Shown: positions 8,473 through 64,000 of the stretch, in pieces
Numbering within the stretch: position 1 is the first letter of the stretch
How the letters are laid out: each line of letters begins with the position of its first letter
Assembly: GCA_016930185.1 (NCBI GenBank)
Contig: JAFGHK010000059.1
Coordinates: forward strand, 9,251-73,250
Direction of reading: 5' to 3'
Length of the DNA: 64,000 nucleotides
Origin: Dehalococcoidales bacterium
Lineage (GTDB): Bacteria; Chloroflexota; Dehalococcoidia; Dehalococcoidales; RBG-16-60-22
Notes under the pieces: model-generated
Database searches by the model: none
The model's input: the letters and a program-made list of their open reading frames with translations, nothing else
What the model was told of the DNA's origin: nothing
Position numbers and translations under genes: made by a program

Positions 8473-9621
8473 TTACTGCGTTTTTACAGTCGATTGCTTG
8501 ATATTGTTCAAAACCTGATTATATACATCCAGCAATTTTCTGGCGATAATTTCCCAGTCGAACTGCCGCGCTCGGGGTATGCCCCTGTCGCCCATATGCT
8601 GCCTTAGCTGCTTGTTCCTTAAGAGCCTTAAAATAGCTTCGGCGAGTTGGTAGGAGTCCTTGGGCGGCACGGCTATGCCCTCCACGCCGTCGTTAAGGAC
8701 GCTGGAATAGCCCTCGATGTTCGATGCGATAACCGGCCTGCCGACCGACATCGCTTCCAGCAGCACGATACCCTGGCTCTCCCGCCCCGTGGCCGGGAAA
8801 CAGACGATATCCGCGGTCTTGTAATATCTCGGCAAATCTTTGTATGTTGCATAGCCCCTGAAATTCACGTCCGGCAGTCCGTACTGGCGCACGAATTTTT
8901 GGTATTTCTTGCGCAGCCGCACCCCCGGCCCCACCTGTATCAGGCGGCAGTCGGGCACTTCCGGTTTGATTAATTTATAGGCTTCCAGCAGGAAATCGAA
9001 CCCCTTTCTCTTTTCCAGTCTCCCCACGAAGAGGATATTCGTCTTCCCATCGTTAAAGTTATCGAATGGAGCTACTTTTTCATGGAAATGCTGGGTGTCC
9101 ACTCCGTTGGGAATGATGACGTAATCGTTAGGGAAGTATTTATTAACATAGGAAAGAGCCACCTTTGAGACGGCGATACGCCCGTCCAGCTTGCGGAACC
9201 AGCGGTCCAGATACCATTTAACGATTGGAGAGAACATAGTGTACCAGGGTTTGCCACCGGAAGCATGGAATGTGCCTACCATTGGCGATTTCTTTAATCT
9301 AAGGATGGTCGTACAAAGGGTGGGCATCAGGGGTTCGTGCAGGTGGCAGATATCGAACTTCTCCCGCTCGAATACCTCTTTAATTTTACTCTCCAACCGG
9401 AGGGATATGGTAATACGTGCGATAGAACCGCTGACCGGTATGGGACGCGGCGTGCCGATGCGGATAAATCGGTCGCTCATTGTGTAAACAGCTTTAGATG
9501 CCGGGGCGATTATTTTAACATCGTGCCCCAGTTTGGTGAACTGCTTTTCCAGACACGATATGTGGCTGACCACGCCGCCCGGTGAAGCGAAGTCGTAAGG
9601 GGAAACCAGGGCAATTTTCAT
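8473..9621 (-). CDS. GT4 glycosyltransferase, PimA-like
   Basis: N-terminus MKIALVSPYDFASPGGVVSHI..GHDVKIIAP parallels mycobacterial PimA. It has the GT4 C-terminal E-x7-E region (GIVLLEAMSVGRPVIAS). Confidence 0.8.
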   Translation of the reverse strand: MKIALVSPYDFASPGGVVSHISCLEKQFTKLGHDVKIIAPASKAVYTMSDRFIRIGTPRPIPVSGSIARITISLRLESKIKEVFEREKFDICHLHEPLMPTLCTTILRLKKSPMVGTFHASGGKPWYTMFSPIVKWYLDRWFRKLDGRIAVSKVALSYVNKYFPNDYVIIPNGVDTQHFHEKVAPFDNFNDGKTNILFVGRLEKRKGFDFLLEAYKLIKPEVPDCRLIQVGPGVRLRKKYQKFVRQYGLPDVNFRGYATYKDLPRYYKTADIVCFPATGRESQGIVLLEAMSVGRPVIASNIEGYSSVLNDGVEGIAVPPKDSYQLAEAILRLLRNKQLRQHMGDRGIPRARQFDWEIIARKLLDVYNQVLNNIKQSTVKTQ

Positions 9622-9627
9622 GCCGCT

Positions 9628-10743
9628 TTATTTAGACCCCCGTTTTTTAGCCGGTTTCTTTTTTGCAGATATCGCGTTGGCTGCGATAAACTCCTCGACC
9701 TTGTTGCGGGCCTCGGAGTCGCTGTACTGTATCGGCGGAGTCTTCATGAAATAAGAAGAAGGCGCGGTCAATGACCCCTTCATGCCGCGGTCCATAGCGA
9801 GCTTGCAGCACCTTATAGCATCGATGACGACGCCGGCGGAGTTGGGGCTGTCCCAGACCTCCAGCTTGGCCTCGACCAGCAGGGGAACATCGCCGAAGGT
9901 ACGGCCTTCCATCCTGATATGGCAGAACTTGCGGTCAAGCAGGAAAGGAACGTAATCGCTGGGACCCACGTGAATATCATCGGGGTCTATTTTATAAGGC
10001 AGCTGGGAGGTTACGGAGCCGGTCTTGGATATTTTCTTGGACTCCAGGCGCTCCCTTTCCAGCATATTGAGGAAATCGGTGTTGCCCCCAAAGTTCAGCT
10101 GGTAGGTCTTTTCCATTTTCACGCCGCGGTCAACGAACAGCTTGGTCAGTACGCGGTGGACAATCGTGGCGCCCACCTGCGACTTAACATCATCGCCGAT
10201 AACCGGCAGACCGTGGTCGGCAAAGCGTGCTGACCAGTCCTTGCGGCTGGCGATGAACACCGGGATGCAGTTGATGAAGCCGCAGCCGGCCTGTAATACC
10301 TGCTCGACGTACCACTTGGTAGCCATTTCGCTGCCGACGGGCAGGTAGTTCAATACAACGTCTGTCTTGGTCTCCTTGAGCACCTTGACGATATCCACGG
10401 TAGGTGGGGAGGCTTTCTGGATAATCTCGGAAAGGTACTTGCCTAGTCCGTCGTGCGTCATGCCCCGGCTTACCTTAACGCCCGTCATGGGCACATCGCA
10501 GAATTTATAGGTGTTGTTCGGCTTGGCGTATATCGCCTGCGCCAGGTCCTTCCCAACCTTGTTTTTATCGACATCGAAAGCGGCTACGAAGTTGACATCG
10601 GAGATATGATAGCCGCCCAGGTTGACGTGCATGAGTCCCGGCACTTTTTCATCGTCTTTGGCGTTTTTGTAGTAATATACTCCCTGTACCAGGGAAGAGG
10701 CGCAGTTGCCCACGCCGATGATTGCCACGTTTATTTTCCCCAT
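9628..10743 (-). CDS. ino1: myo-inositol-1-phosphate synthase
   Basis: NAD-binding N-terminus [19 protein letters not shown]. Length is about 370 aa, like the short bacterial/archaeal MIPS type, with a conserved central region ([15 protein letters not shown]). Confidence 0.85.
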
Positions 10744-47425: not shown

Positions 47426-47899
47426 ATGAAATATGTCTGGGCGCCGTGGCGAATCGAGTATATCAAGGCGGAAAAACCGGCCGGCTGTATCTTCTGTGAA
47501 AAGCCGAAAGAAAGTAAAGATAAAAAAAATTATATCCTTTATCGGGGCATAAAGAACTTTATCATGCTGAACAGCTATCCCTATAATCCCGGCCATATTT
47601 TAGTAGCCCCTTATCGACACACGGGGAACCTGGAGGAGCTTACGGAGGAGGAGCGCAGCGAGCATTACGAATTGGTAAGTCGGAGTGTCGCGGTGCTAAA
47701 AAAGGTCTTGAAACCCGCCGGTTTTAATATCGGGGCGAACTTGGGTAGGGTGGCAGGTGCGGGTATAGAAGACCATTTTCACAGTCATGTAGTGCCGCGG
47801 TGGCAGGGCGATAACAATTTTATGCCGGTGCTGGGGGATGCCAAGGTAATACCGCAGGCACTAGCGGACACCTATGATACACTCGCGGATTATTTTTAG
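47426..47899 (+). CDS. HIT family nucleotide hydrolase/transferase
   Basis: WAPWRIEYI N-terminus and histidine triad HFHSHVVPR. Confidence 0.85.
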   Translation: MKYVWAPWRIEYIKAEKPAGCIFCEKPKESKDKKNYILYRGIKNFIMLNSYPYNPGHILVAPYRHTGNLEELTEEERSEHYELVSRSVAVLKKVLKPAGFNIGANLGRVAGAGIEDHFHSHVVPRWQGDNNFMPVLGDAKVIPQALADTYDTLADYF

Positions 47900-50280
47900 C
47901 TGCGGACCGTGTGTTTCTTAGTGTGAGAAGTGCCGGCATTATATCTTTCGGATACTATTTCCAGCGGCAGGGTGAAGAAACAGCGTGTCCCGACACCCTC
48001 CTCGCTCTCAATCCAGATTTTACCCCCATGGGATTCAATCAGTCCTTTGCAGATGGATAATCCAAGACCGGCGCCGGCAACGCCTAATTTTTGACCTCGT
48101 GGAGAATGGAACATGCGCTGGAATAACTGCGGCATGTCGCTTTTAGGTATGCCTGTTCCATGGTCGATTATGGTAAAAAGTAGTTCGCCATCGATTTTCT
48201 GTACGGAAAGAGATATTTCCGTGCCGGGGTCGGAATACTTGACGGCATTATCGATAATGTTATCCAGAACCTGCCGAATACGCCGGCTATCGATGTTAAT
48301 TTTAGGTAGTCTAGGCGGCAGGTCCGATTTGAAAATATGTTCCGGGGCTCTGACAAGGGCTTCGCTGATAACGGTCTGGCAGAGAGTAATAATATCAGCC
48401 GGTACTTTTTTAATTGAAAGCATACCGACACCCAGGCGGGACATCTCCAGCAGCTGCTCGATTAGTTCCACCAGGCGGTCGGCGTTTTTATCGATTGTCT
48501 CTAGATATTCCCGTTTTTCAGCTGGCGTGAGTCTTTTATCATAGTCTATGAGCATGGTGGCAAAGCCTTTTATGCTGGCAAGCGGAGTGCGGAGTTCATG
48601 GGAAACATTAGCCAGGAGTTCCGCGCGCAGTCTGTCCAGCTGTTTTAAATTTTCTACTTCGAGCGCTTTTACCTCCATTCGTTTATAATCGGTAATATCA
48701 ACCGTAACGGCCAGCACGCAGGTTTCACCGTCAAGCTCAATCTGGTCGGCAGACCAGAGCATGTTACGTATTTCACCGGATTTAGTACGATAGCGGAATT
48801 CTTTATTACTAACCCGTCCATACTTTTTTAGGTGACTGACCATATCTTTACGGTCATCCCGGTTAACCCAGACATCCAGTTCGCTGGAACTGCGGCCAAT
48901 TACTTCTTCACGTGAATAACCCAAAACCCGGCAAAAACTTTCATTTATCTCCTTGAAGACCCCGTCTGAAAGTCTGGTAATACTGATTACCTGCGGGCTG
49001 GCGCGGAAAGCCTTAGCAAATTTTTCCTCCGACTCCTGAAGGGCTTGTTCTATCTGTTTACGTTCAGTAATATCATTACCAACGGTGAGCATACAGGGTC
49101 TACCGCCGAGATTAATCACATCCGCCGATAGTAAAACGGTCCGTATCTCGTGTGATTTATTTCGTAATATGAATTCTTCATTTTCAAAATGGCCCCTCTT
49201 TTCCAGTAACTGCTTCATGCGATAGCGGTCCCCAGGGTTTACCCAGAAATTCAATTCTTTAGAGGTATGGCCTATGGTTTCTTCGCGGGAATAACCGATA
49301 ATGGAGACAAAACTATCGTTGACTTCCAGGAATATACCGCCTTTCAGAGTGGCGATGGAGACAGCCTCGGGTATAGAGCGGAAAGCCTTGGAGAATTTTT
49401 CTTCGGAATCGCGTAAGGCTTGTTCTATTTTCTTAATCTCGGTGACATCTGTGGAAGAGGAAATGACGCATTCTTCGCCGCCGATGTTGATTTTCTCTGC
49501 GGAGAATAACAGTATTTGTATGTCGCCGTTTTTGGCGTAAAATTGTAGCTCTTCATTGTACACCCGCCCTTTTTTTTCAAGCGTTTTCATTACTCTTTTA
49601 CGGTCGTTATCATCTGCCCACATTTTAAGCTCTACTGATTTATTACCGATTAGCTCATCGTGGGTGTATCCTGTCATGCGGCTAAGACTGTCATTAGCCT
49701 CAATGAATCTTCCTTCTTTGATAGTGGTGATACTGATTGCCTGGGGACTGGAGCGGAAAGCTACGGCGAGTTTGTTTTCGGACTCTCTTAAAGCCTGCTC
49801 CACTTTACGGAGCTCGGTAACATCGGTAGCAACGGCAATCATACAGGGGTCGTTATCAATGCTAATTATTTCCGCCGAACAGAGCCACGTTCGGATTTCA
49901 CCGGACCTGATGCGGAAGTGATATTCTTTATTTTTCAGGCCGCCGGTTTCCTGTAAAATGCGCATCATGCTCACCTGTTCTTCGGGGTTGACGAAGAGCT
50001 TAAAATCATCGACGGTATGCCCGATAAGCTCATCGCGACTATAACCGGTGTTGCGGACAAAACTGTCATTGACCTCTATATATTTGCCGTCCTTTATAGA
50101 GGAAATGATAATCATGTCCGGGCTGGAAAGGAAGGCTTTATAGAACTTCTCCTCCGACTGGTTCAATTCATGGTCGGCCTTTTTACGCTCGACTTCAGCG
50201 GCGGCGAGTATTTCGAGTTGCCGGCGGGATTCCTGCAGTTCGCTGATGAGTTGCTTGCGGGTTTTTTGCGAATCTCTCAT
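47896..50280 (-). CDS. cytoplasmic sensor histidine kinase with about five tandem PAS domains
   Basis: Repeated ~125-aa PAS units (..SPDMIIISS.., ..SPQAISITT.., ..IPEAVSIAT.., ..SPQVISITR..). H-box SHELRTPL, and N/G boxes DNAVKYS, DHGTGIP, GAGLGLSI. No adjacent response regulator. Confidence 0.9.
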   Translation of the reverse strand: MRDSQKTRKQLISELQESRRQLEILAAAEVERKKADHELNQSEEKFYKAFLSSPDMIIISSIKDGKYIEVNDSFVRNTGYSRDELIGHTVDDFKLFVNPEEQVSMMRILQETGGLKNKEYHFRIRSGEIRTWLCSAEIISIDNDPCMIAVATDVTELRKVEQALRESENKLAVAFRSSPQAISITTIKEGRFIEANDSLSRMTGYTHDELIGNKSVELKMWADDNDRKRVMKTLEKKGRVYNEELQFYAKNGDIQILLFSAEKINIGGEECVISSSTDVTEIKKIEQALRDSEEKFSKAFRSIPEAVSIATLKGGIFLEVNDSFVSIIGYSREETIGHTSKELNFWVNPGDRYRMKQLLEKRGHFENEEFILRNKSHEIRTVLLSADVINLGGRPCMLTVGNDITERKQIEQALQESEEKFAKAFRASPQVISITRLSDGVFKEINESFCRVLGYSREEVIGRSSSELDVWVNRDDRKDMVSHLKKYGRVSNKEFRYRTKSGEIRNMLWSADQIELDGETCVLAVTVDITDYKRMEVKALEVENLKQLDRLRAELLANVSHELRTPLASIKGFATMLIDYDKRLTPAEKREYLETIDKNADRLVELIEQLLEMSRLGVGMLSIKKVPADIITLCQTVISEALVRAPEHIFKSDLPPRLPKINIDSRRIRQVLDNIIDNAVKYSDPGTEISLSVQKIDGELLFTIIDHGTGIPKSDMPQLFQRMFHSPRGQKLGVAGAGLGLSICKGLIESHGGKIWIESEEGVGTRCFFTLPLEIVSERYNAGTSHTKKHTVRS

Positions 50281-53454: not shown

Positions 53455-55971
53455 TTATGAGTCTTTTTTCATCTTGCGGAAAAGTGGCGACGGCCACCAG
53501 TTCCAACGCCCCAGCAAAGTCGCCAGTGCCGGCACTAGGAGAGCGCGTACCAGGAAAGTATCGATTAACACGCCGATAGCGATAGCTACGCCTATATGGA
53601 GGACCATGGGGAAAGTTGAGCTCGCCAGCGTGGCAAAGGTGCCGGCCAGGATAATGCCGCAGGAAGTGATAACGTTGCCGGTATTGGCAACGGCCTGGTG
53701 AACTGCTTCTTTGATTGACTTGTTCTGCGATTCTTCGCGGATTCGTGATACGAGGAAAATATTGTAGTCCGCCCCCACCGCCGCCAGCATGACAAAGACG
53801 AAGACTGGCAGCATGTTAATCAGGCTTTCGAATTTCAACAGGTCTAAAAAGATCCAGGCGGTTAAGCCGAGCGTAGTGCCGTAGTTAAGCAGCACCGTTA
53901 ATACCATGTATATCGGGGCTAAAAGACTGCGCAGCAATATAACGATGACGAATAGTATGCCTATTGAAGTGACGACAATTACTATAGTCAGGTCGTCATT
54001 GCTGGTTTTTACCATATCTGTGTATAGGGCTGTCTCCCCGCCGACATAATGTTCAATTTCTCCAACGTCGGAAGCTGCTATGGCGGCAGTTACTGCCTCC
54101 CGTATATCCGGCAGGACAAGCGCGGCGTCATTTGAATAGGGGTCGACATCCAGTATCAGGTACATCCTCGCAGTGGTGCCGTCGGCGGAAAAATAGACCG
54201 CCTTAAGCCAGTCAACGAACACGCCGCTGCCATTTAGTTGAAACTCATTACCCAGGCCGGTCAGGGCATCGCCGAGGTCGTAAAGCGATGTCTGGAGCTG
54301 CGAAATCAGGTCCGGTAATTCTGAAGGTGATGCCGTATTAATCTGAACTGCCAGCGCAGAGACCTGCGGAAGTATAGCCGACGATGATATAAAATTAGGA
54401 CTTTGCGTGACCCCCGGGTACTCTAGCGCCAGGGCTTCCAGTTGGTCGGATTGGGACTGCAGCAGTGACAAACTGCTGGAGCTGAAGACGGGCGTAGTTA
54501 CTATATCTCCGAGACTTTTGACCTGTTCCCCGAGGCTGATGAGCTGGTCACCGGCAATAGAGGGATAATCGACTCTTGACAGGTCTTCGTCTTCGGTCAG
54601 CTTCTGTGCCACCTGGTCGATGCCTTCAAGCGAGTCCGGAGTAAGCAGATTGCCGCTTTCCGATTGCAGTACCAGGGTCAGCGGTGATAACTCGCCAACC
54701 GGGAAATGGTCCCTGATTATATTAAGCCCCTGGCTGGATTCCTCACCGGAGGATAGCTGCGTCAGTACATTGGCGGACAATTTGAACCCGGGTATGGCTA
54801 AGTACGGGATAAGCAGCACTATAATAATAGGTACGGCTGTAAGTATAGGGTGGCGGGAAATCCATTCACCGGTTTTTGCCCAGCCCCAACGCCTCTTTTT
54901 TGGTTTCGTTTCTTCCTTCGGCTTGTTCTTAGTTGGCCAGAACAGGAAGCGCCCGAAAATGGATATCAATGCGGGCACGAGAGTTACTCCGGCGGCAAGT
55001 GTAACGGCGATGCCTATGGCGAGGGCGTAGCCGCTGGTTTGAGTCATCCCAAAGCGTGACACGCTCAAGCAAAGGAAGGCGATGATTACGGTAATTGCGC
55101 TGGCAAAAATAACGGGCCCGATTTGCCTCATCGTGAAGTCGATTCCCCGTGTGTTATCGGCACGTGCTGTTTCTTCACGGAAGCGGGAAATGATAAACAG
55201 ACAGTAATCCGTGCCCACGCCGAATATAGTAACCACCATGTAGGCGTCGATTACGGTGGAAATGCTTAATCCGGCCCCGGCAAGATAACCGATGATACCG
55301 CGCGCGACCAGGAAGCTGACTCCAATCGCTACCAGGGGCACCAGGGCGGCAATCGGCGAGCGATAGACTATTAGGAGCAGGACAATGACCAGGATAATCG
55401 TTACCAGGGTGGTGTTGTCGATTGTGCGCTGGACCGATTCAAACATGTCATGGATGAAGCCCATGCTCCCGGTGAAATAGATAGATGTTTCCGGATAAAG
55501 GGCGAATTGCTTGCGGATGGTTTTTATTGCCTGCTCTACATTTTCGTCCAGCGCCGAGGAGGAAAACCCCACGGACATCATCATCGTGGTATCGTCCTGG
55601 CTGACGAGGGAAGAGCGCAGGGCTTCGCTATCGAATATCGAGGTAACGCGGGTGACCGCCTCGGGGCTGTTATCTGAAATGAGCCAGTTGCGCAGTTTCA
55701 AGGCCTGGTCCATATCTTGTTGATTCAGACCTTGTTCATTATAAACGACGATTGTGCCGCTGGTTTCCTGCGCACCGGAGCCGAATTTTTCATTCAGGAG
55801 ATCGCGGGCATAGACGGACTCAGTCTTTTCCGGGAGAAACTGACTCTGGTCGGTAATTCCGACCTCCGATAGAGTCGGCGCCTGGAACACAAGAAATATG
55901 GTGATGGCTAGCCAGCAGCCGAGGATGTAAAAGCGGTATTTATGAGCAAAACGTCCGAGTGCGGAGAACAT
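53455..55971 (-). CDS. MMPL-family RND-type membrane transporter
   Basis: Two halves, each a large extracytoplasmic domain followed by a 5-6-TM bundle. Motifs GTDYCLFIISRFREE and GADYNIFLVSRIREE. Confidence 0.88.
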   Translation of the reverse strand: MFSALGRFAHKYRFYILGCWLAITIFLVFQAPTLSEVGITDQSQFLPEKTESVYARDLLNEKFGSGAQETSGTIVVYNEQGLNQQDMDQALKLRNWLISDNSPEAVTRVTSIFDSEALRSSLVSQDDTTMMMSVGFSSSALDENVEQAIKTIRKQFALYPETSIYFTGSMGFIHDMFESVQRTIDNTTLVTIILVIVLLLIVYRSPIAALVPLVAIGVSFLVARGIIGYLAGAGLSISTVIDAYMVVTIFGVGTDYCLFIISRFREETARADNTRGIDFTMRQIGPVIFASAITVIIAFLCLSVSRFGMTQTSGYALAIGIAVTLAAGVTLVPALISIFGRFLFWPTKNKPKEETKPKKRRWGWAKTGEWISRHPILTAVPIIIVLLIPYLAIPGFKLSANVLTQLSSGEESSQGLNIIRDHFPVGELSPLTLVLQSESGNLLTPDSLEGIDQVAQKLTEDEDLSRVDYPSIAGDQLISLGEQVKSLGDIVTTPVFSSSSLSLLQSQSDQLEALALEYPGVTQSPNFISSSAILPQVSALAVQINTASPSELPDLISQLQTSLYDLGDALTGLGNEFQLNGSGVFVDWLKAVYFSADGTTARMYLILDVDPYSNDAALVLPDIREAVTAAIAASDVGEIEHYVGGETALYTDMVKTSNDDLTIVIVVTSIGILFVIVILLRSLLAPIYMVLTVLLNYGTTLGLTAWIFLDLLKFESLINMLPVFVFVMLAAVGADYNIFLVSRIREESQNKSIKEAVHQAVANTGNVITSCGIILAGTFATLASSTFPMVLHIGVAIAIGVLIDTFLVRALLVPALATLLGRWNWWPSPLFRKMKKDS

Positions 55972-56140: not shown

Positions 56141-57379
56141 TCACTTTTCAGAGGCGTGTTTCTTCGTCTTGGACGCCGGTTTTGATTGAGGTTGCTCTTT
56201 AGCTCCGGCAAGTTCCAGGGTGCGGTTAGCTATTTCTGTGGCCTGGTTAACGATACTGGTCCATTTTTCACCAGCCTCGCTCTCTGCCCTGACTACAATA
56301 TCTCTTGCCTTTTGTTCCGCCGCATGGATGATTTTGCTGGCCTTCTCCCGGCTTTCTTTTATCAATTTAGTAGACTCCGCGGCTGTTTCGGATTTGGCTT
56401 TGTCCACCGCCTCGGCGAGAAGTCTGGCGGAATCTTTGTCTGCTTTGGCTTTTACCTTGGCCATGAGTTCTTTCGCGGTATTTTCGTTAGCGGCTTTTAG
56501 CTTGGTCGGTAGCGCTTCTGCATCTTTTTCTGCTTTAGCGATAATCTTAGAGGCTCTGCTACGGGCATCGGCTAGTACTTTGGCTGCGTCTTCTTCGGCG
56601 TTGGCTCTGGCGCGGTCGGCTATTTCAACGGCTGATTTTTCTGCTTCGTTAATGATTTCCGATACCTGTTCCTTGGCCTCGGTAATCAGCTTGGCAGCTT
56701 CCGCTTTTGCGGTTTTTATAACATCTTCTTTAGCTGTTAATTGGCAGTTAGCTGCTAGTGCATCATGGACGATTTCCTCTGACTTGCGGTGTGCTTCACT
56801 TACGAGTTTATCCGCCTCTCCCTTCGCCTTGGCATAAATATCTTCTTGGGCCGTCATTTCCTTGACGGTAAGCTCCGCCATGTCGATTATCTGGGCGGCT
56901 TTTTGGCGGGCTTCCGCGATTATAGCGGCCGCGGTGGTTTCGGCTTCGGTCTTGATTTTATGCAGTATGTGGGTGGCTTGGTGTTCCGCGTTTTGGATGA
57001 TTTTCTCGGCCTTCCCCTTGGTCTCGTCTATAAGCTTGGCGGATTTTGTCTCTGCTTCATTCTGGCCTTTAACAGCAATATCCCTGGCCACTTGTTCCGC
57101 ACGGGAAATTATTTGAGAAGCTCTTTGCTTGGCATCGTTGAAAACCAGCGTTGATGGCGCAGCACGCTCCTCGGTCCTCTCCTTTGGTTTTGTGTCTTTC
57201 GTCCGTGGTAGCAGACGATTGGTTATAGGGAATTGGGGACGCTTCGCCCCCATTTTTTCAGCTTCCTTTTTTTCGTCTTTTTCAGAAGGGTGGTTAATTG
57301 TCAATGGCTGGTGGCACCAGCGGCAGACTGTGCCGAAGGCTTCCTGCCCGCAGTGCGGGCATTTATGGGGCGTTCTCAT
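56141..57379 (-). CDS. Zn-ribbon protein with ~330-aa Ala/Glu/Lys-rich helical repeat region
   Basis: N-terminal CPHCGQEAFGTVCRWC, then reiterated A-x2-I-I-x2-A-E-x2-A type segments (AEKIIQNAEHQA, AAQIIDMAE, SEIINEAEKSA, SKIIAKAEKDA, SKIIHAAEQKA). Confidence 0.7.
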   Translation of the reverse strand: MRTPHKCPHCGQEAFGTVCRWCHQPLTINHPSEKDEKKEAEKMGAKRPQFPITNRLLPRTKDTKPKERTEERAAPSTLVFNDAKQRASQIISRAEQVARDIAVKGQNEAETKSAKLIDETKGKAEKIIQNAEHQATHILHKIKTEAETTAAAIIAEARQKAAQIIDMAELTVKEMTAQEDIYAKAKGEADKLVSEAHRKSEEIVHDALAANCQLTAKEDVIKTAKAEAAKLITEAKEQVSEIINEAEKSAVEIADRARANAEEDAAKVLADARSRASKIIAKAEKDAEALPTKLKAANENTAKELMAKVKAKADKDSARLLAEAVDKAKSETAAESTKLIKESREKASKIIHAAEQKARDIVVRAESEAGEKWTSIVNQATEIANRTLELAGAKEQPQSKPASKTKKHASEK

Positions 57380-57623
57380 ACAATTACCTCTTTTGTAATA
57401 ACAATGACAATGCCTTCTGGCGATGCATCTTTTTTAGCTCGTATAGCACACATAAAATATCTGGTTAGCATGATTATAACATATCCTGGCAACCAACTTA
57501 AGCCTCCGTATTGAGTAATTGTTCGATAGAAGAATGCTTTGATTTGAGTCTATAAATATCTAAAGTAACCCAAAGTTATCATATGCCTGAAATTGATAGC
57601 CAGAACCCAAGTATTATTGGTGT

Positions 57624-57789
57624 TTCCCCTAGTGGGAATTAAGGGGAATCTTACTATCGACTTGCTGGCTTAGCAAGTAATATCAGAGGTATAAACCTTA
57701 ATCGCGCCGTATCAAATCTATATTAAGGATGTTAGAAAGATTGACCTCCGAAGCTAAACGATTTAACGAGGCTCATTTCTTACCCTCGT
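57624..57789 (+). other. four consecutive stem-loops in the 470-nt pilin upstream region
   Basis: H1 is TTCCCCT (57624-30) / AGGGGAA (57642-48). H2 is ACTTGCT (57660-66) / AGCAAGT (57672-78). H3 is CCTTAAT (57696-702) / ATTAAGG (57722-28). H4 is ACGAGG (57766-71) / CCTCGT (57784-89). Confidence 0.5.
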
Positions 57790-57850
57790 GCTATCTAAGA
57801 ATTTCACCTAATTTTATTATACCGAAAGTCTTAAGAAAAGGAGGGAAAAT

Positions 57851-58225
57851 ATGAAAGGCTTTGCGAAAAAGGGCAGCAAGGGTGAAAAAGGTTTTACCCT
57901 GGTCGAACTACTCATCGTGTTTACCTTGCTGGGAATTCTGGCTGCTATCATGATTCCTAACGTGTCAGGATTAGTCGGCTATGGTCAGACGCAAGGTGCC
58001 GAAGCGGAACTGTCTATCATACAGACGGCGATGGATACCATGATGGCGAAAGAGAACCTCTCTCAAGTCGCCGACACCAGTGGTGTCAATGCTACTAACA
58101 ACATGTCATCGTTCCCTGTCAGTGGCACTTCGCTTTATACCGGCTACGTGCGATTTGAACTGGCCAAGGGCACCTATTCCTGCGACACCACCGGCCTGGT
58201 TACCCAGGAAGACACCGGGTTCTAG
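57851..58225 (+). CDS. type IV pilin / pseudopilin with class III (prepilin) signal peptide
   Basis: MKGFAKKGSKGEKG/FTLVELLIVFTLLGILAAI has a Gly-Phe cleavage site, Glu+5 and a hydrophobic helix. Strong SD AAAGGAGGG. Confidence 0.9.
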   Translation: MKGFAKKGSKGEKGFTLVELLIVFTLLGILAAIMIPNVSGLVGYGQTQGAEAELSIIQTAMDTMMAKENLSQVADTSGVNATNNMSSFPVSGTSLYTGYVRFELAKGTYSCDTTGLVTQEDTGF

Positions 58226-58309
58226 GAGTGTGTGCAGCGTATAAGTTAGTAATTAGTAACTTGTAAGCAAAACAACTGTAAATCAAAACCGGGTATTAGT
58301 GAGTGTTTT

Positions 58310-60577
58310 ATGCCGATGAACACAACAACTACAAATAGCGGTATAAATGATGGCGAAAAGCTGGAGACAACAGCTACGCTGAACGCTAAGACCGGTGAGG
58401 AGACCCAAAAGGCAGCCTCTTTGAATGGCGATTCCAAAGAATTGCTGTTAAGAGCGCAACAAAACGCTCTTGAAGCTAAAGAGGCTGCCTTGGGTGCCAT
58501 CAACCGGTTTTATCAGGAGAGCAAGGCATCTGAAACCAAATCTACGAAAATGTTGACCGAGCTGGAGGATGCACTTCAGCTTGCTTTGGATGCTACGAGG
58601 AAGTCTAGAGGCTCTAAAAATAAACGTAGCCAGGAAACCAGCGAGTCCACCACCGCGCCACAAGACGAAACGAATCTTAAAGAACCAATCAAGATTCTGA
58701 ATGCCAATCCATTCGGCATTGTTGGGGATTTAAAGAGGTCCCTTTTTAAGGTGAAGCCCACCGATGCCGAAGTCAAAGAAGAATTTTACCGGCTGGTAAT
58801 GCGTAAAAGCCCCCAACTGCGCCAGCTTATTGATGATCTAACCGAAGATAAAGCCAGGGTCAGGATTGAAAAAGTCATTTCCCAGGCTAAGTCGGAAATA
58901 GCGGCGGCCCGCGTGGCGGTGAATAAAGTTCAGCAAGAGGTTAACACCACCAAGGAAGAGGCAAAAAAGACCTATCTCGATGCCGAGAACGCCCGCAAAG
59001 CTGCCGAATTACTCATCAGCCAGGTAAAACAGGAAACAATTACCAAGGCTGCTAATGAAATTATCAGGGCCCGCGAAGAAGTGAAAGCAGCTAAAGGAGC
59101 TGCTAGCATGGCTGTTCAACGGGCTGAAGAAGAAATCAGGAAAAATTGTGAAGAAGCGGCAACTGTGGATAGAAACGCCCAGGTTACCGTCGCCTTAGCC
59201 AATGAAAAATTAAAAAAATACGCCGAGGAACTAAAGGCTTATAAACTCCAGGCGCACATTGCGGTCAAACAGGCCCGCGAAGAGGTAAGTAAAGCTAAAG
59301 CGGATGCTGAAGCGGCACGCAGCGTAGTTCAAGAGTCGCTGGAGAAATCTGCTCTGGAAAGCCAGCAGGCTAAGGCGGATATCGAGACCGCCCAGAAAAT
59401 GATGCAGGAAGCTACCGTAATAGCGGAAAAGCATGCTTATGATGAATTCCTGGAAGAAGTTAATGACTTGAGGCAGCAAATAAGCTCTATAAATGCAAAA
59501 TCGCGCGAGGCCATCAATAAAGCACAGCGTGAAAGCCGCGAGGCTAAAGAAGAGCTGGATATGGTGAGAAAGACCAGTGAAGAAGCGGTAAACACGGCGC
59601 GTCGTGAGGCTTCGGAAGCTCGGGAAGAGGCTGAAAGAGCTAAACAGGCATTGATTGAGACAAAAAATCGCTCTAGGGAAGAAACTAGCAAACTGCGACA
59701 GCAAACAGAAACCAGTGTAATACAGGCCAGCGAAGCCATAACGCAGGCCAAGAAAGATATTATAAATATTACCCGCGATGACATTATCAGGTCGAGGCAG
59801 GAACTCGAGGCGCCTTTTATGGCAGCGAAATACGACGACCAGCCGGTATCCGAGAAGCTGGATGCCGGATACGTCGCCACCGTATTACATGAAATGCGCA
59901 GTCCGTTGCACTCTATTTCAGGTTTTACCAAATTAATGAAAGAAGAAGGTGTGACTGATGATGCCACGAGGCAGGAATTCCTCTCTATCATGGAGCAGCA
60001 GAGTGAAACTCTGAACAAACTAATCGATGACCTGTCTGATATTTTAAACAATAAGAATGAAGGACTGACCATCAACGCCGAAGCGGTTTCTTCATACGAC
60101 ATGATTAACGAGGCTATCAACGGCGCGCAATCGATGGCGCAGCAGAAGAACAATCTGATAGGCCATAATCTTAACCCCGAACTGCCGAAGGTAAAAGCCG
60201 ATGCCTCCCGCGTCAAGCAGGTAATTACTAACCTGCTGAACAACGCTATTAAGTTCAGTCCTGAAAACCGCCCTATATTCGTCAAGGCTCAACCGAAGGA
60301 CAATGAATTGGTGGTACAGGTAACTGATTATGGCATTGGCATTCCCAAGGGAGAGCTGAAGGCTATCTTTAACAAGGGGCATCGGGCAGAGAACCGCGGC
60401 GACGTGGAGGGTAGCGGTCTCGGGCTCCATATATGCCATCAGATAGTCAAGGCGCACGGCGGCGATATTTGGGCGGAAAGCGTAGAGGGAGAAGGCAGTA
60501 CCTTCTGTTTTACTCTGCCGAAAGCCGCCGCGGAAAATCCGGAAAATAAAATCGTAGAGAAAAGCTATGTCGGGTAA
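58310..60577 (+). CDS. soluble histidine kinase with ~500-aa coiled-coil N-terminal region
   Basis: No TM helix or PAS/GAF recognised. There is a long A/E/K/Q-rich helical region. H-box LHEMRSPLHSI, N-box LLNNAIKFS, G1 DYGIGIP and G2 GSGLGL. Confidence 0.85.
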   Translation: MPMNTTTTNSGINDGEKLETTATLNAKTGEETQKAASLNGDSKELLLRAQQNALEAKEAALGAINRFYQESKASETKSTKMLTELEDALQLALDATRKSRGSKNKRSQETSESTTAPQDETNLKEPIKILNANPFGIVGDLKRSLFKVKPTDAEVKEEFYRLVMRKSPQLRQLIDDLTEDKARVRIEKVISQAKSEIAAARVAVNKVQQEVNTTKEEAKKTYLDAENARKAAELLISQVKQETITKAANEIIRAREEVKAAKGAASMAVQRAEEEIRKNCEEAATVDRNAQVTVALANEKLKKYAEELKAYKLQAHIAVKQAREEVSKAKADAEAARSVVQESLEKSALESQQAKADIETAQKMMQEATVIAEKHAYDEFLEEVNDLRQQISSINAKSREAINKAQRESREAKEELDMVRKTSEEAVNTARREASEAREEAERAKQALIETKNRSREETSKLRQQTETSVIQASEAITQAKKDIINITRDDIIRSRQELEAPFMAAKYDDQPVSEKLDAGYVATVLHEMRSPLHSISGFTKLMKEEGVTDDATRQEFLSIMEQQSETLNKLIDDLSDILNNKNEGLTINAEAVSSYDMINEAINGAQSMAQQKNNLIGHNLNPELPKVKADASRVKQVITNLLNNAIKFSPENRPIFVKAQPKDNELVVQVTDYGIGIPKGELKAIFNKGHRAENRGDVEGSGLGLHICHQIVKAHGGDIWAESVEGEGSTFCFTLPKAAAENPENKIVEKSYVG

Positions 60578-61763
60578 AGTACTGATAATTGAAGACGACC
60601 CTACCTCTTTGAGGTTGATAGAGTACGCTCTTAAGCAGCGTGGCTACCAGGTCATAACGACTCTTAACGGGCTGGAAGGCATCATAACCGCCCAGAAAGA
60701 GGATCCTGACCTTATTATTCTGGATATTATGCTGCCCGGAATTGACGGCTTTGAGGTATGCCGCAGGCTGCACTCCGGCTCACAGACGGCTAAGATACCG
60801 ATTTTAATTATTTCCGCCAAGACTCAAAAAGAAGATATCAATACCGGGTTTAAGGCCGGCGCTGATGATTACCTGCTCAAACCGGCCTCGCCGACTGAGA
60901 TTATAAATCGCGTGGAGAGTCTGCTTTCCAAGAAAATAACTGGCCAGGCAAAGGTGGTATCTTTTATAAATACCAGCGAGATTCCTGGTCTTACTATGGT
61001 CATGGTCAATGTCGCGGCGGCGCTCGTCGAACAGGAAAAACAGGTTACACTGGTGGACGCATCAAACAGCTATAAAGGACAAAACGGCAAGGATAAAATA
61101 TCTTCAAAACAGGAAGGCCGGGTGATTCTGGAAGTAGATACCATAGATAATGGGGCGCAGGAGCCGGGACTGGAAACACTGCCTTCCGGAATAAGAGTCC
61201 TCCACGTGGATGATGTATTTGACGGTAAAGACGGCGTGTCGGAAACCAGTCTCGACCTCATACAGAAAATCGGCAAGGCTAATGATTATTTGCTGGTCGA
61301 CCTGCCCCTTAAGCCGAATCATTTTACCACCTCGATGCTCAAGAGCAGCGACCTCGTGATGATATTAAGCGAATACCGCATCGATAGTCTCGTTAATACC
61401 AGGAATGCTGTCACGCTGTTGAATTTCCTCGGCGTTACCGCTGAAAAAATGGCTGTCGTGCTGGCGGACCCGGAGGGTAAGAACCAGAACCTGACCACTA
61501 CCAACATGAAGCAGTTTATCGAGGCTAACCTGGGGATTATGCTGGTGGAAGTAGTCTCTTTCGATGCCAAGATGTACCAGCTATTCTACCTGGACAGCCA
61601 GCCCGTAATACAATCCAATCCAAACCAGAAACTGGCACAGGACCTGAAGCGTATCGCCCGGTATATCGCTACGTATAACTATACGGGGCAGGAAACCAGG
61701 CAAACTAAAAAAGTGACTTCTCCCGCGGAGGTGAAAGTTGACGCTGACAAATCACAAGCCTAA
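60567..61763 (+). CDS. response-regulator receiver fused to ParA/MinD/CpaE(TadZ)-like domain with degenerate P-loop
   Basis: REC residues are intact (IIEDDP, ILDIMLPG, IISAKT, LLKP). In the C-terminal domain, VVSFINTSEIPGLTMVMVNVAAALVEQEKQVTLVDAS aligns to xxSxKGGVGKTTxAxNLAxxLAxxGxxVxLVD with KGGVGKT replaced by SEIPGLT. An NDYLLVDLP Walker-B-like segment is present. Confidence 0.75.
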   Translation: MSGKVLIIEDDPTSLRLIEYALKQRGYQVITTLNGLEGIITAQKEDPDLIILDIMLPGIDGFEVCRRLHSGSQTAKIPILIISAKTQKEDINTGFKAGADDYLLKPASPTEIINRVESLLSKKITGQAKVVSFINTSEIPGLTMVMVNVAAALVEQEKQVTLVDASNSYKGQNGKDKISSKQEGRVILEVDTIDNGAQEPGLETLPSGIRVLHVDDVFDGKDGVSETSLDLIQKIGKANDYLLVDLPLKPNHFTTSMLKSSDLVMILSEYRIDSLVNTRNAVTLLNFLGVTAEKMAVVLADPEGKNQNLTTTNMKQFIEANLGIMLVEVVSFDAKMYQLFYLDSQPVIQSNPNQKLAQDLKRIARYIATYNYTGQETRQTKKVTSPAEVKVDADKSQA

Positions 61764-63426
61764 AGGCACGCTGGGGGAATCGTTGGTTCAGAAGCAGGTT
61801 ATTACTCCGGAACAGCTCCAGGAAGCCCAGGAAAAGCAAAAAGAACAGGGCGGCAAGCTTAGTGAAATCCTGATTAATCTGGGTTTCGTTAAGGTCGAAG
61901 AGCTGGCGTCGTTCCTTAGCATCATGTGGAATTTGCCTCTTATCGACCTTAAGACGCACGTGGTGCAGCCGGAGGCCCTGGCATTGATACCGGAAGAACT
62001 GGCCAGGAAGCACCTTTTTATACCCCTGCAGATCATCAACGATTCGTTGATGGTGGTGATGGCTGACCCCGATGACTATATTACCATCGGGGATATTTTT
62101 GCCAGGACCAATATGAAGGTACAGGTGGCGTTCGCTAACGCTGCGGATATCCGGCGCGCTATCGACATTTACTATCGCGCTACCGATGAAATACAGGAGA
62201 AAGTAGGCGGGATCCTTCCGGCGGATATCGGCGACCGCGAATCCACCGCCGATTTTAATGTTGAAACGCCCATTACGGAAAGCCTGGACCTGCTTATCGA
62301 ACAGGCTGTCAGAGACCGGGCGTCCGATATTCACCTTGAGCCGCAGAGTGACCGCCTGCGTATCCGTTACCGTATCGACGGTGTGCTGTATGATATGAAC
62401 TCTGTGCCTATGAACATCCACGCAGAACTGGCTTCCAGGATAAAAATTTTGGCAGAAATGGACGTGACCCGTTCTAAGCAGGCGCAGGACGGGCAGTTTT
62501 CCTTAAAAATTGGTGATAAGAACATTGATATCCGTGTCGCCAGCACTGATACCATCCACGGCGAGCGGATTACCCTGCGTCTGCTGGATAAATCGGTATC
62601 GCTTTTTACACTGCCGGAGCTGGGCTTTTTGCCGGATACCCTGAAAAAATACCAGTCGCTTTTACACTATCCCTTCGGCATGATTTTGGTGGGGGGGCCG
62701 ACCGGTTCCGGTAAAACAACCACGCTTTATACATCTATCAATGAAATCGACCGTAAAAGATATAACATTATGACCATCGAAGACCCCGTGGAATACCAGT
62801 TCGAGAATATTACCCAGAGCCAGCTGGACACCAAAGCCGGCATAACCTTCGCCAGCGGCCTGCGGGCATTACTCCGGCAGGACCCGGATGTGATTCTCGT
62901 GGGGGAAATACGTGATAAAGAGACTGCCATCACCGCCGTACAAGCGGCCCTTACCGGACATCTGGTATTTTCTTCTATCCATGCTAATGATACCGTCAGC
63001 ATGATTACGCGCCTTATCGACCTCGGTGTGGAGCCGGGGCTCGTCTCTTCCACGCTTATCGCTTTAGTAGCCCAGCGTATGGTCCGCCGTATATGCACCA
63101 ATTGTCGTATAGCGGTGACGCCTAACGCCGTACAGAAAGAGATATACCTCAAAGAAATGGGTGAGGAACTAACGACCGTATATAAAGGGGCTGGCTGTCA
63201 TCTCTGCGGCAATACCGGCTACATGGGCAGAATAGGTATCTTCGAATTGCTCGTCATGAGTGAAGAAATACAGAAAATGTTAATTAGCGACGTCAGCATA
63301 GGTGTGTTGAGAGAAGAAGTGATTCGCGAGGGGATTTACACCATGAGGCGTGACGGCCTGTTGAAGGTAAAAGAAGGAATCACCACTTTTGAAGAAGTGA
63401 TGAATAGCATATTTACGATTGGATAA
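61738..63426 (+). CDS. pilB: type IV pilus assembly ATPase (PilB/GspE family)
   Basis: T2SSE_N-like N-domain, Walker A GGPTGSGKTTTLY, Walker B DPDVILVGEIRD, His box TGHLVFSSIHAN, and tetracysteine CTNC...CHLC. TTG start after GGAGGTG. Confidence 0.92.
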   Translation: MTLTNHKPKGTLGESLVQKQVITPEQLQEAQEKQKEQGGKLSEILINLGFVKVEELASFLSIMWNLPLIDLKTHVVQPEALALIPEELARKHLFIPLQIINDSLMVVMADPDDYITIGDIFARTNMKVQVAFANAADIRRAIDIYYRATDEIQEKVGGILPADIGDRESTADFNVETPITESLDLLIEQAVRDRASDIHLEPQSDRLRIRYRIDGVLYDMNSVPMNIHAELASRIKILAEMDVTRSKQAQDGQFSLKIGDKNIDIRVASTDTIHGERITLRLLDKSVSLFTLPELGFLPDTLKKYQSLLHYPFGMILVGGPTGSGKTTTLYTSINEIDRKRYNIMTIEDPVEYQFENITQSQLDTKAGITFASGLRALLRQDPDVILVGEIRDKETAITAVQAALTGHLVFSSIHANDTVSMITRLIDLGVEPGLVSSTLIALVAQRMVRRICTNCRIAVTPNAVQKEIYLKEMGEELTTVYKGAGCHLCGNTGYMGRIGIFELLVMSEEIQKMLISDVSIGVLREEVIREGIYTMRRDGLLKVKEGITTFEEVMNSIFTIG

Positions 63427-63456
63427 AATGCCATTTTGTTCTACAGAGGAATATGA

Positions 63457-64000
63457 ATGTACCAGTATGAAGCATACACTCTTGATAAAGAGATCGTTCA
63501 GGGCACTATCGATGCCCCGAGCGAAGGCATAGCCGAGGAAAGACTCAATGGGGCCGGATATCATCAGATATTAACTCTAAGAAAAACGTCCCCGTCGCTT
63601 TCTGCATCTATCAAGAGGCTGTTTCTCCGCCCCTCCTCTGTCAAGAAGGCAGAATTCGTAGATTTTTTCCAGCAGTTAGCCACGCTTTTAGATTCCCAGA
63701 TGCCTTTCGTACAGGCTTTGTGGGTGCTGGCGGAACAAACTCCCAATCCTACTTTGAGAGATGTTATTACCAGGCTAGGCAGGGATGTGTCCGGGGGTGT
63801 TCCTTTCTCTCTGGCGCTGGGGCAGTATCCCAAGCTCATATCAAGCCATTACTGCCAGGTGATTAAGGTAAGTGAAAAATCCGGCGACCTGATGCGCGGT
63901 TTAAGGCTGGTAGCGGGTTATATAGAAAAAGAAGCCACCTTAAGCGGTCACGTTAAGCGTATGCTGTCTTACCCTGCGTTTCTTGGTTTAGCGGCGCTGG
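63457..64000 (+). CDS. pilC: type IV pilus platform protein (PilC/GspF family), 3' end outside the window
   Basis: Not in the ORF track because there is no stop in the window. From the ATG at 63457: MYQYEAYTLDKEIVQGTIDAPSEGIAEERL...AEFVDFFQQLATLLDSQMPFVQALWVL...YPKLISSHYCQVIKVSEKSGDL, typical of the first T2SSF repeat. Confidence 0.85.
   Translation, partial: MYQYEAYTLDKEIVQGTIDAPSEGIAEERLNGAGYHQILTLRKTSPSLSASIKRLFLRPSSVKKAEFVDFFQQLATLLDSQMPFVQALWVLAEQTPNPTLRDVITRLGRDVSGGVPFSLALGQYPKLISSHYCQVIKVSEKSGDLMRGLRLVAGYIEKEATLSGHVKRMLSYPAFLGLAAL

Follow-up and report, generated by a model that had tools for sequence, protein, structure and literature searches.

The gene cluster and its junctions

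The subject of this analysis is a type IV pilus-like gene cluster in which a two-component pair, a histidine kinase and a response regulator, stands between the pilin gene and the genes of the PilB/PilC motor. It lies at the end of a 64,000-nucleotide stretch of contig JAFGHK010000059.1 from a Dehalococcoidales bacterium (assembly GCA_016930185.1), which we call the window; positions are those of the window unless a related locus, labelled L and a number, is named. A first-pass annotation made from the sequence alone had placed five co-directional genes here. The list of open reading frames has all five at the coordinates it gave, on the + strand, and profile searches with Pfam and NCBIfam models return the domains it assigned to them (aa, amino acids):

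57851..58225, + strand: major prepilin, 124 aa (N_methyl E 4e-8, TIGR02532)
58310..60577, + strand: soluble histidine kinase, 755 aa, with a HisKA and HATPase_c core and a coiled-coil N-terminal region
60567..61763, + strand: response regulator, 398 aa, with a canonical receiver and a MinD/ParA-fold domain without P-loop
61738..63426, + strand: PilB-type extension ATPase, 562 aa, TTG start (T2SSE E 3e-118, MshEN E 4e-17)
63457..64000, + strand: PilC-type platform protein, incomplete at the edge of the window (T2SSF E 6e-20)

The junctions between these genes are overlapping or closely spaced. Inspection of the junction sequences confirmed the overlaps noted earlier, of 11 nucleotides (nt) between kinase and regulator and of 26 nt between regulator and PilB. 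The TTG start of PilB has a Shine-Dalgarno sequence, GGAGGTG, 5 nt upstream, inside the regulator gene, and the starts of PilC and the pilin are preceded by GAGGA/GGAGG ribosome-binding sites, that of the pilin being a strong GGAGGG. No internal transcription signal was found in the gap between pilin and kinase. A promoter scan gave one promoter-like site where nine were expected by chance, and terminator-like sites were at chance level, so that the scan is uninformative for or against a single transcript.

Conservation of the gene order

A metagenome scan with a profile of the family-specific C-terminal part of the regulator yielded 19 loci; the counts that follow refer to the intact loci that extend far enough. 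PilB comes directly after the REC/MinD-like regulator gene in 17 of 17, the coiled-coil kinase stands ahead of it in 13 of 13, and the pilin ahead of the kinase in 8 of 8. In four diverged contigs from genomes (51-61% identity) the order is pilin, kinase, REC/MinD-like gene, PilB, PilC, two to three prepilin-like genes, a gene for a protein of ~200 aa and PilM-PilN. A synteny that holds down to ~40-50% identity thus gives strong support to the suggestion that the signalling pair is part of the machine operon. All informative related loci repeat this gene order, and the arrangement is not due to chance. The tightest linkage of the pair is to PilB, through overlapping genes, rather than to the pilin promoter.

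Where the genes from PilB to PilM/N are gone, an internal deletion has removed the receiver as well. In L092 (2143-3039), L093 and L110 the product is 298 aa long, and PilB does not follow; L110, which is identical to L093, is the sole exception of the scan. L091 (576-1352) retains the MinD-like part alone (258 aa), again with no PilB behind it, and this remnant abuts a GAF-HD gene that in L088 stands after the whole pilus cluster. We considered whether family members of 250-300 aa are split versions without REC and rejected this, as they are decay remnants. The kinase gene of L085 (1.47-Mb contig, ~9590-9640) has a frame change within the DHp-CA linker, either an assembly error or a recent pseudogene. 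We do not regard this kinase as genuinely truncated, since it carries a frameshift only; the truly truncated ones are those of L089 and its relatives, described below.

The histidine kinase

The catalytic core of the kinase comprises HisKA (residues 522-577) and HATPase_c (residues 631-739), preceded by a long N-terminal region:

58310..59809, + strand: N-terminal ~500 aa, coiled-coil-like by composition
59888..59890, + strand: codon of His527, the predicted phospho-acceptor in the H-box VLHEMRSPLHSI, from the HisKA span and the alignment position
60200..60526, + strand: HATPase_c ATP-binding domain, residues 631-739 (E 5e-29)

The H-box is intact, and the N box (NLLNNAIKFS), G1 box (DYGIGI) and G2 box (GSGLGL) are all present. 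With the D-D-D-S/T-K set of the receiver, the residues expected of a two-component pair are complete in the window and in most lineages. Residues 200-500 consist to 59% of A, E, K, Q and R, with no proline and a single glycine. The N-terminal 500 aa are conserved at 30-67% identity among orthologues, and no Pfam domain scored above threshold in them, nor was a known sensor domain recognised; for the L086 orthologue a weak match to Scy is on record. No membrane segment was found in the kinase, the maximum hydropathy over 19 residues being 0.56.

The response regulator

The regulator is built of two domains, the second of which is degenerate at the Walker A position:

60567..60935, + strand: receiver domain, residues 1-123, with D10, D11, D53 (codon 60723-60725), S83 and K105
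60951..61676, + strand: MinD/ParA-fold domain, residues ~129-370, from profile matches
60963-60995, + strand: Walker A position of the MinD-like half, which reads FINTSEIPGLT and contains no lysine

Response_reg matches residues 5-117 with an E-value of 1e-28, and D11, D53, S83 and K105 are invariant in an alignment of 21 family members. In Foldseek comparisons, the receiver part of the predicted model superposes on activated receivers with a root-mean-square deviation (rmsd) of ~1 Å.

Searches of PDB sequences and with Foldseek that used the full-length regulator were dominated by receiver matches, and the C-terminal domain was searched alone. Its profile matched archaeal MinD-1 (1hyq) over the full length (E 4e-7); Soj, Wzc, BcsQ and FleN came next. 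AAA_31 matches residues 129-270 of the regulator (31 bits, cutoff 27) and was recovered in 16 of 16 family members, BcsQ in 15 of 16. The archaeal MinD model minD_arch gave 31.7 bits on the C-terminal domain, against a cutoff of 201, and covered the C-terminal half only. The GKGGTGKTT of MinD aligns to nsseipglt in the family profile, and neither position of the deviant Walker A lysines is occupied by lysine in any of the 21 aligned members (16 in a second alignment). Because both lysines are absent, ATP hydrolysis by this domain is very unlikely, and the MinD-like half is, to judge by its sequence, probably not an ATPase. No DNA-binding, sigma-54 AAA+, helix-turn-helix (HTH) or other output domain was found in the regulator with Pfam and NCBIfam models.

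A tentative structural counterpart of the whole protein is TadZ (3fkq; E 1.4e-9, query TM-score 0.41, 14% identity, rmsd 15.5 Å, for a model with a predicted local distance difference test score, pLDDT, of only 71.5). Among the 50 Foldseek matches listed it has the highest query TM-score and is the only one to cover both domains. The C-terminal domain had no sequence-profile match to 3fkq at E-values up to 10, and Pfam TadZ_N is not among the matches of the regulator at E-values up to 0.01. The family comprises more than 120 clusters at 50-96% identity, nearly all of ~390 aa, whose members are named only 'response regulator' or 'CheY-like/MinD-like'; the proteins closest to that of the window come from Dehalococcoidales/Chloroflexi metagenome-assembled genomes.

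Relatives and outgroups of the regulator

In a scan of a genome collection with the full-length regulator alignment, generic receivers dominated and L005-L007 alone were informative. In these loci, from other Dehalococcoidales, a receiver 56-60% identical to that of the window lies between kinase and PilB, and no MinD-like homologue was found in them. The receiver of L006 (6998-7399) is a stand-alone protein of ~135 aa, preceded by a kinase of a different, REC-PAS-rich type (1119 aa) and followed by PilB. With a receiver in this slot even here, the order kinase, then receiver, then PilB is the conserved core, and the MinD-fold domain is a CpaE-like add-on whose nucleotide site was lost in the lineage of the window.

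An exhaustive search with the C-terminal profile showed a sharp drop past the family, followed by a long tail of proteins of ~380-400 aa with the same layout. The Walker A position and the scores of the C-terminal domain change along this series as follows:

Outgroups (P0143, P0151 and others): KGGVGTS, KGGAGVT; CpaE-homologue model 64 bits (P0143)
Intermediates (P0134, P0135; ~40% identity): KEKVGTT, KGKAGTT; archaeal-type MinD 75 bits (P0134)
Window family: NTSEIPGLT; archaeal-type MinD 32 bits, C-terminal half only

The CpaE-homologue model is TIGR03815, and none of the C-terminal domains tested reached a family cutoff. P0143 and P0151 thus have the K/RGGxGxS/T motif of TadZ, and P0134 and P0135 have it in part. 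The receivers of the outgroups are canonical. L095 has a MinD-like gene, then a REC/MinD gene with the KGGVGTS motif, then PilB; L094 has kinase, REC/MinD and PilB with overlaps of 8 and 4 nt. In both loci the PilB encoded next, 53% identical to that of the window, has an N-terminus of the MshEN type. The proposal of a TadZ-like hub, made before any database had been searched, thereby gains in three respects, namely from the Foldseek match to 3fkq over both domains, from the KGGxGxT/S motif of the nearest outgroups and from the CpaE-homologue model as their best-scoring one.

The pilus machinery

In the pilin, the leader MKGFAKKGSKGEKG is followed by FTLVELL (G-1, F+1, E+5), that is, a class III signal peptide is present. 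N_methyl scores 32.9 bits (cutoff 21.2) and TIGR02532 is matched; the protein also scores against the GspG, PilA and ComGC pilin models, and no Flp model is among its matches. Its orthologues are 58-72% identical and occupy the same position in 8 of 8 loci. The best NCBIfam model for the ATPase is type IV-A PilB, TIGR02538, at 532 bits, which is under the strict equivalog cutoff of 675, versus 50.8 bits for the TadA model TIGR03819; its orthologues are 70-88% identical. The N-terminus of PilB contains one further feature:

61771..61920, + strand: residues 12-61 of PilB, match to a model of an MshE-related domain that binds cyclic di-GMP (c-di-GMP; NF053729, 59 bits, cutoff 38)

By eye, several signature residues deviate in this MshEN region, for example T for the first R. 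The match raises the possibility that PilB has a second, nucleotide-messenger input.

Contigs that extend the window were located by exact-sequence lookup of PilB; the same lookup with the REC/MinD-like protein gave no match. As had been supposed, the operon runs off the window and continues in L001, which is ~100% identical and reaches 4.5 kb past the window end; L097 is ~96% identical. In L001 the full length of PilC is 404 aa. It is followed by two small prepilin-like genes (PilV/ComGE/ComGF-like) and by a third, for a prepilin-like protein of 445 aa (L001 4833-6170). This protein has an internal duplication of two ~150-aa repeats, each of which opens with W(D/E)DFESG.W.GG.GW.DDWTHSG. Across lineages the product of the third gene ranges from 133 to 445 aa, and it is a candidate tip or adhesin subunit. 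Next comes a bitopic protein of 207 aa with one membrane segment and a coiled coil, which we call PilO-like from its position and topology only, and at the end of L001 a PilM-like gene begins. In relatives the last gene of the cluster encodes a PilM-PilN fusion of ~485 aa, with unrelated genes after it; the 484-aa orthologue in L085 matches PilN with 29.7 bits (cutoff 22.8) and PilM (TIGR01175) with an E-value of 2e-10, below threshold. The earlier statement that no PilM/N/O is visible therefore holds for the window and fails for the operon, which has PilO-like and PilM-PilN genes downstream in L001/L097; they are missing from the window because its edge cuts the operon.

There is no PilB/PilT paralogue within the 64-kb window, and no prepilin peptidase (Peptidase_A24) is recorded among the called genes flanking L085, L086, L088 and L089, a survey that did not include the window. 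PilD and PilT may be encoded elsewhere in the genome. The complete order is thus one of ten genes: pilin, kinase, REC/MinD-like gene, PilB, PilC, three prepilin-like genes, PilO-like gene and PilM-PilN fusion. Together they form a compact type IVa-like pilus operon of the monoderm type, without a secretin, of which the window holds the front half.

A subclade with degenerate kinases

In one subclade of the family (L089, L090, L109, L112, L113), whose regulators are ~50-52% identical to that of the window, the kinase homologue (L089 8005-9921; L112 550-2469; L113 4673-6550; also in L090 and L109) stops ~45 residues after the H-box and thus is without HATPase_c. The phospho-accepting histidine is replaced by N or R (VLNEMR, VLREMR, VLNEIR), and in the receiver D10 is replaced by A. 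L089 and L090 are independent assemblies. The subclade keeps both genes before PilB, and L089 and L113, which extend far enough, have the complete pilus cluster. In these two loci additional genes of the histidine kinase, REC-REC, REC-GAF-histidine kinase and OmpR types lie just upstream of the pilin. With the histidine and the ATP-binding domain lost in the subclade, phosphorylation is not essential to the pair everywhere, which argues that the role of the pair in the machine is not wholly dependent on its own phosphotransfer chemistry.

Neighbouring genes

Ahead of the pilin the window has a 470-bp non-coding stretch (57380-57850). In three relatives a gene for a MerR/HTH_17-type protein of ~75 aa lies directly upstream of the pilin (L085 7047-7274, L086 6988-7221, L089 7318-7533); it is absent from the window. 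The nearest gene on the other side of the non-coding stretch is divergent:

56141..57379, - strand: 412-aa protein, possibly pilus-associated, with a zinc-ribbon-like motif (CxxC...CxxC) at its N-terminus and with long repeats of coiled-coil type

The repeats score weakly against models of DivIVA/Wag31, Scy, ATP synthase b, V-ATPase E and FliH/SctL, and the composition of the protein resembles that of the kinase N-terminus. Homologues (35-51% identity) occupy the same divergent position in L085, L086 and L096-L098; no match was found in the upstream flanks of L088, L089, L111 and L113. Further upstream, the window encodes a soluble kinase of 794 aa with repeated PAS-like modules (47896-50280, - strand) and an MMPL-family transporter of 838 aa (53455-55971, - strand); an MMPL gene also neighbours the cluster in L085 and L086.

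The proposed role of the pair

Gene content, intact catalytic residues, loss of the Walker A motif, the lack of a DNA-binding domain and strict linkage to PilB are the directly supported basis for what follows. We put the probability that the two-component pair carried by this pilus operon acts on the machine rather than on DNA at roughly 0.55. The most likely role of the pair is then that of a phospho-switchable, TadZ-like adaptor directly on the PilB motor. With its coiled-coil region the soluble kinase would sense a cue from the cytoplasm or from the machine, autophosphorylate on His527 and pass the phosphate to Asp53 of the receiver; the phosphorylated receiver would alter the docking of the receiver domain, the MinD-fold domain or both on the PilB hexamer or on the PilM/PilC platform, and pilus assembly would in this way be gated on or off, or the site of machine assembly fixed. 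On this reading the cluster suggests that a pilus motor can be switched or positioned in a manner not described before. Several points weigh against it. Given the subclade with degenerate kinases, phosphorylation cannot be essential everywhere, and the c-di-GMP-type MshEN motif may mean that PilB is controlled by another route. Moreover, we infer phosphotransfer from kinase to receiver only from adjacency, the 11-nt overlap and the co-occurrence in 13 of 13 loci, and co-transcription only from overlaps and synteny.

The main rival, which we consider possible though clearly less probable, is that the pair, made up of a dimer of the coiled-coil kinase and the REC/pseudo-MinD protein, serves mainly as a fixed structural or positioning scaffold in the cytoplasm, with phosphorylation dispensable or vestigial, and recruits or stabilises the PilB hexamer at PilC/PilM, as TadZ does by means of a receiver that cannot be phosphorylated, the DHp helices of the kinase docking on REC as in a kinase-regulator complex. 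This would account for the retention of both genes before PilB in the subclade that has lost the histidine, HATPase_c and D10, and for the loss of the Walker A motif across the whole window family; it also agrees with the conservation of the coiled-coil region of the kinase (30-67% identity) and with the description of the TadZ receiver as an atypical protein-interaction domain. However, the window and most lineages strictly conserve every catalytic residue of kinase and receiver, which argues for ongoing selection on phosphotransfer, and in L089 and L113 the extra kinases and receivers upstream could supply the phosphorylation. A further reading, to which we lend similarly limited credence, would have the pair built into the type IVa motor as a structural part, with the kinase dimer and the receiver/pseudo-MinD protein as a stator- or hub-like assembly in the cytoplasm around the PilB hexamer, phospho-tunable in most lineages and fossilised in the subclade.

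Two-component pairs beside pilin genes classically control pilin transcription, as PilS/PilR do, and the pair could govern pilus gene expression indirectly in an analogous manner, for instance if the phosphorylated regulator sequestered or released a transcription factor such as the MerR/HTH_17 protein of ~75 aa, whose gene precedes the pilin in L085, L086 and L089. We regard this as unlikely: that gene is absent from the window, the regulator has neither a DNA-binding nor a sigma-54 activator AAA+ domain, the kinase lacks the membrane segments of PilS, and the closest linkage, with overlapping genes, is to PilB and not to the pilin promoter. Still less probable, and largely refuted, is that we are dealing with an ordinary protein of cell division or of Tad pili, of the CpaE/Ssd/MinD type, in a mis-typed Tad locus or as a chance neighbour. 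Its architecture is indeed TadZ-like (3fkq, query TM-score 0.41), the outgroups score against TIGR03815, and one source labels the shortened relatives 'Flp pilus assembly CpaE family ATPase'. Nevertheless, the ATPase is of the PilB type (TIGR02538 532 bits versus 51 for TadA TIGR03819) and carries an MshEN N-domain, the cluster includes a PilM-PilN fusion, the motif of the pilin is of the GFxxxE type (TIGR02532), the K/RGGxGxS/T Walker A-like motif is absent and no family cutoff is reached, and the 17/17 linkage to PilB excludes chance. The cell-division MinD/Ssd protein was rejected together with the Tad locus.

Significance

To our knowledge, the switching and positioning of type IV pilus motors are understood in a few diderm model organisms only, and TadZ/CpaE hubs are regarded as specific to Tad systems, with an atypical receiver for which we know of no input. 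The family described here places a TadZ-like hub with a functional-looking receiver in a PilB/PilM/PilN-type machine, with a kinase alongside. If the pair is indeed a built-in structural part of the pilus motor, this would be a phosphorylatable relative of TadZ/CpaE, possibly ancestral-like, and the first such hub in a machine of the PilM/N/O type. In the family and its outgroups, enzymatic decay can be followed through three grades, with the CpaE-type motif still intact in the first, the P-loop lost in the second, and the histidine and ATP-binding domain of the kinase lost in the third. This series offers a comparative handle on how signalling proteins become parts of nanomachines and on the past role of the TadZ receiver. 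The locus also identifies pilus regulation in the Dehalococcoidia, a group of environmental importance with few members in culture; since the hosts are uncultured, the scope for experiments is limited. For specialists in type IV pili and in two-component systems, its chief interest is that it combines features of different pilus classes and loses enzymatic function by degrees.

Comparison with known systems

The first-pass annotation could not match this arrangement to a described system, and full-text literature searches agree: they turned up no account of a kinase and REC/CpaE-like pair in a PilB/PilM/PilN-type cluster, within a coverage that takes in subscription journals in part. Reviews treat TadZ as specific to type IVc and PilM/N/O as specific to type IVa pili, and neither kinases nor receivers are listed for pil clusters in surveys of Gram-positive pili.

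In gene content the cluster resembles the compact type IVa clusters of monoderms such as Streptococcus sanguinis and Clostridium, which comprise pilin, minor pilins, PilB, PilC and PilM/PilN/PilO and have no secretin; a PilM-PilN fusion is known in C. difficile (PMC6916266). The S. sanguinis and Clostridium clusters differ in being without a kinase, receiver or MinD-like gene and in including PilD and PilT, whereas no PilD is recorded near the clusters related to ours.

With PilS/PilR of Pseudomonas, Geobacter and Myxococcus the cluster shares the position of a kinase and a regulator between pilin and motor genes. PilS, however, is a sensor that crosses the membrane several times, and PilR activates sigma-54 promoters as a protein of the NtrC type that contains AAA+ and HTH domains; the kinase of the window is soluble, with no membrane segment, and its regulator has neither of these domains, which separates the pair from PilS/PilR. 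It is likewise distinct from Pil-Chp, as the kinase is of the HisKA class and no CheA, CheW or methyl-accepting chemotaxis protein is recorded among the genes of the related clusters.

A functional parallel lies in receivers that act on the motor itself. DrdR of Xanthomonas binds both PilB and PilT and raises the ATPase activity of each (PMC13507683), and PATAN-REC regulators of Synechocystis bind PilB1 (bioRxiv 10.1101/2021.06.11.447907). PixG/PixE/LsiR of Synechocystis, DrdR and PilG/PilH of Pseudomonas resemble the regulator of the window in having a phosphorylatable receiver, no DNA-binding output and a proposed post-translational action on the type IVa extension ATPase. They differ in being orphans or parts of CheA-type, chemotaxis-like systems and in being encoded outside the pilB operon, whereas the kinase of the window is a soluble coiled-coil protein of the HisKA class encoded within the operon, and in their partner domains, which are PATAN or a second REC and not a MinD fold.

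The system is not a Tad (type IVc) system either, having no TadA/CpaF-type ATPase and a pilin without a match to Flp models, yet its regulator resembles a Tad protein, and the system would work like TadZ/CpaE combined with a response regulator that binds PilB. TadZ, a protein of the ParA/MinD kind, positions the Tad ATPase; it has an atypical, non-phosphorylated receiver domain (ARD) and a Walker A-like motif described as K/RGGxGxS/T (bioRxiv 10.64898/2026.07.08.737194). Like TadZ/CpaE, the regulator combines, within ~390 aa, a receiver fold at the N-terminus with a ParA/MinD fold at the C-terminus and is encoded directly upstream of the secretion ATPase of its system, and the nearest outgroups of its family have the KGGxGxT/S motif of TadZ. 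The window family itself is without that motif, and its partner is a PilB-type ATPase with MshEN, encoded among genes of the PilM/PilN/PilO type and not, as TadA/CpaF is, with Flp pilins; with its canonical receiver, this sets it apart from the TadZ family as defined. That receiver is also presumably phosphorylated, and it is accompanied by a dedicated kinase.

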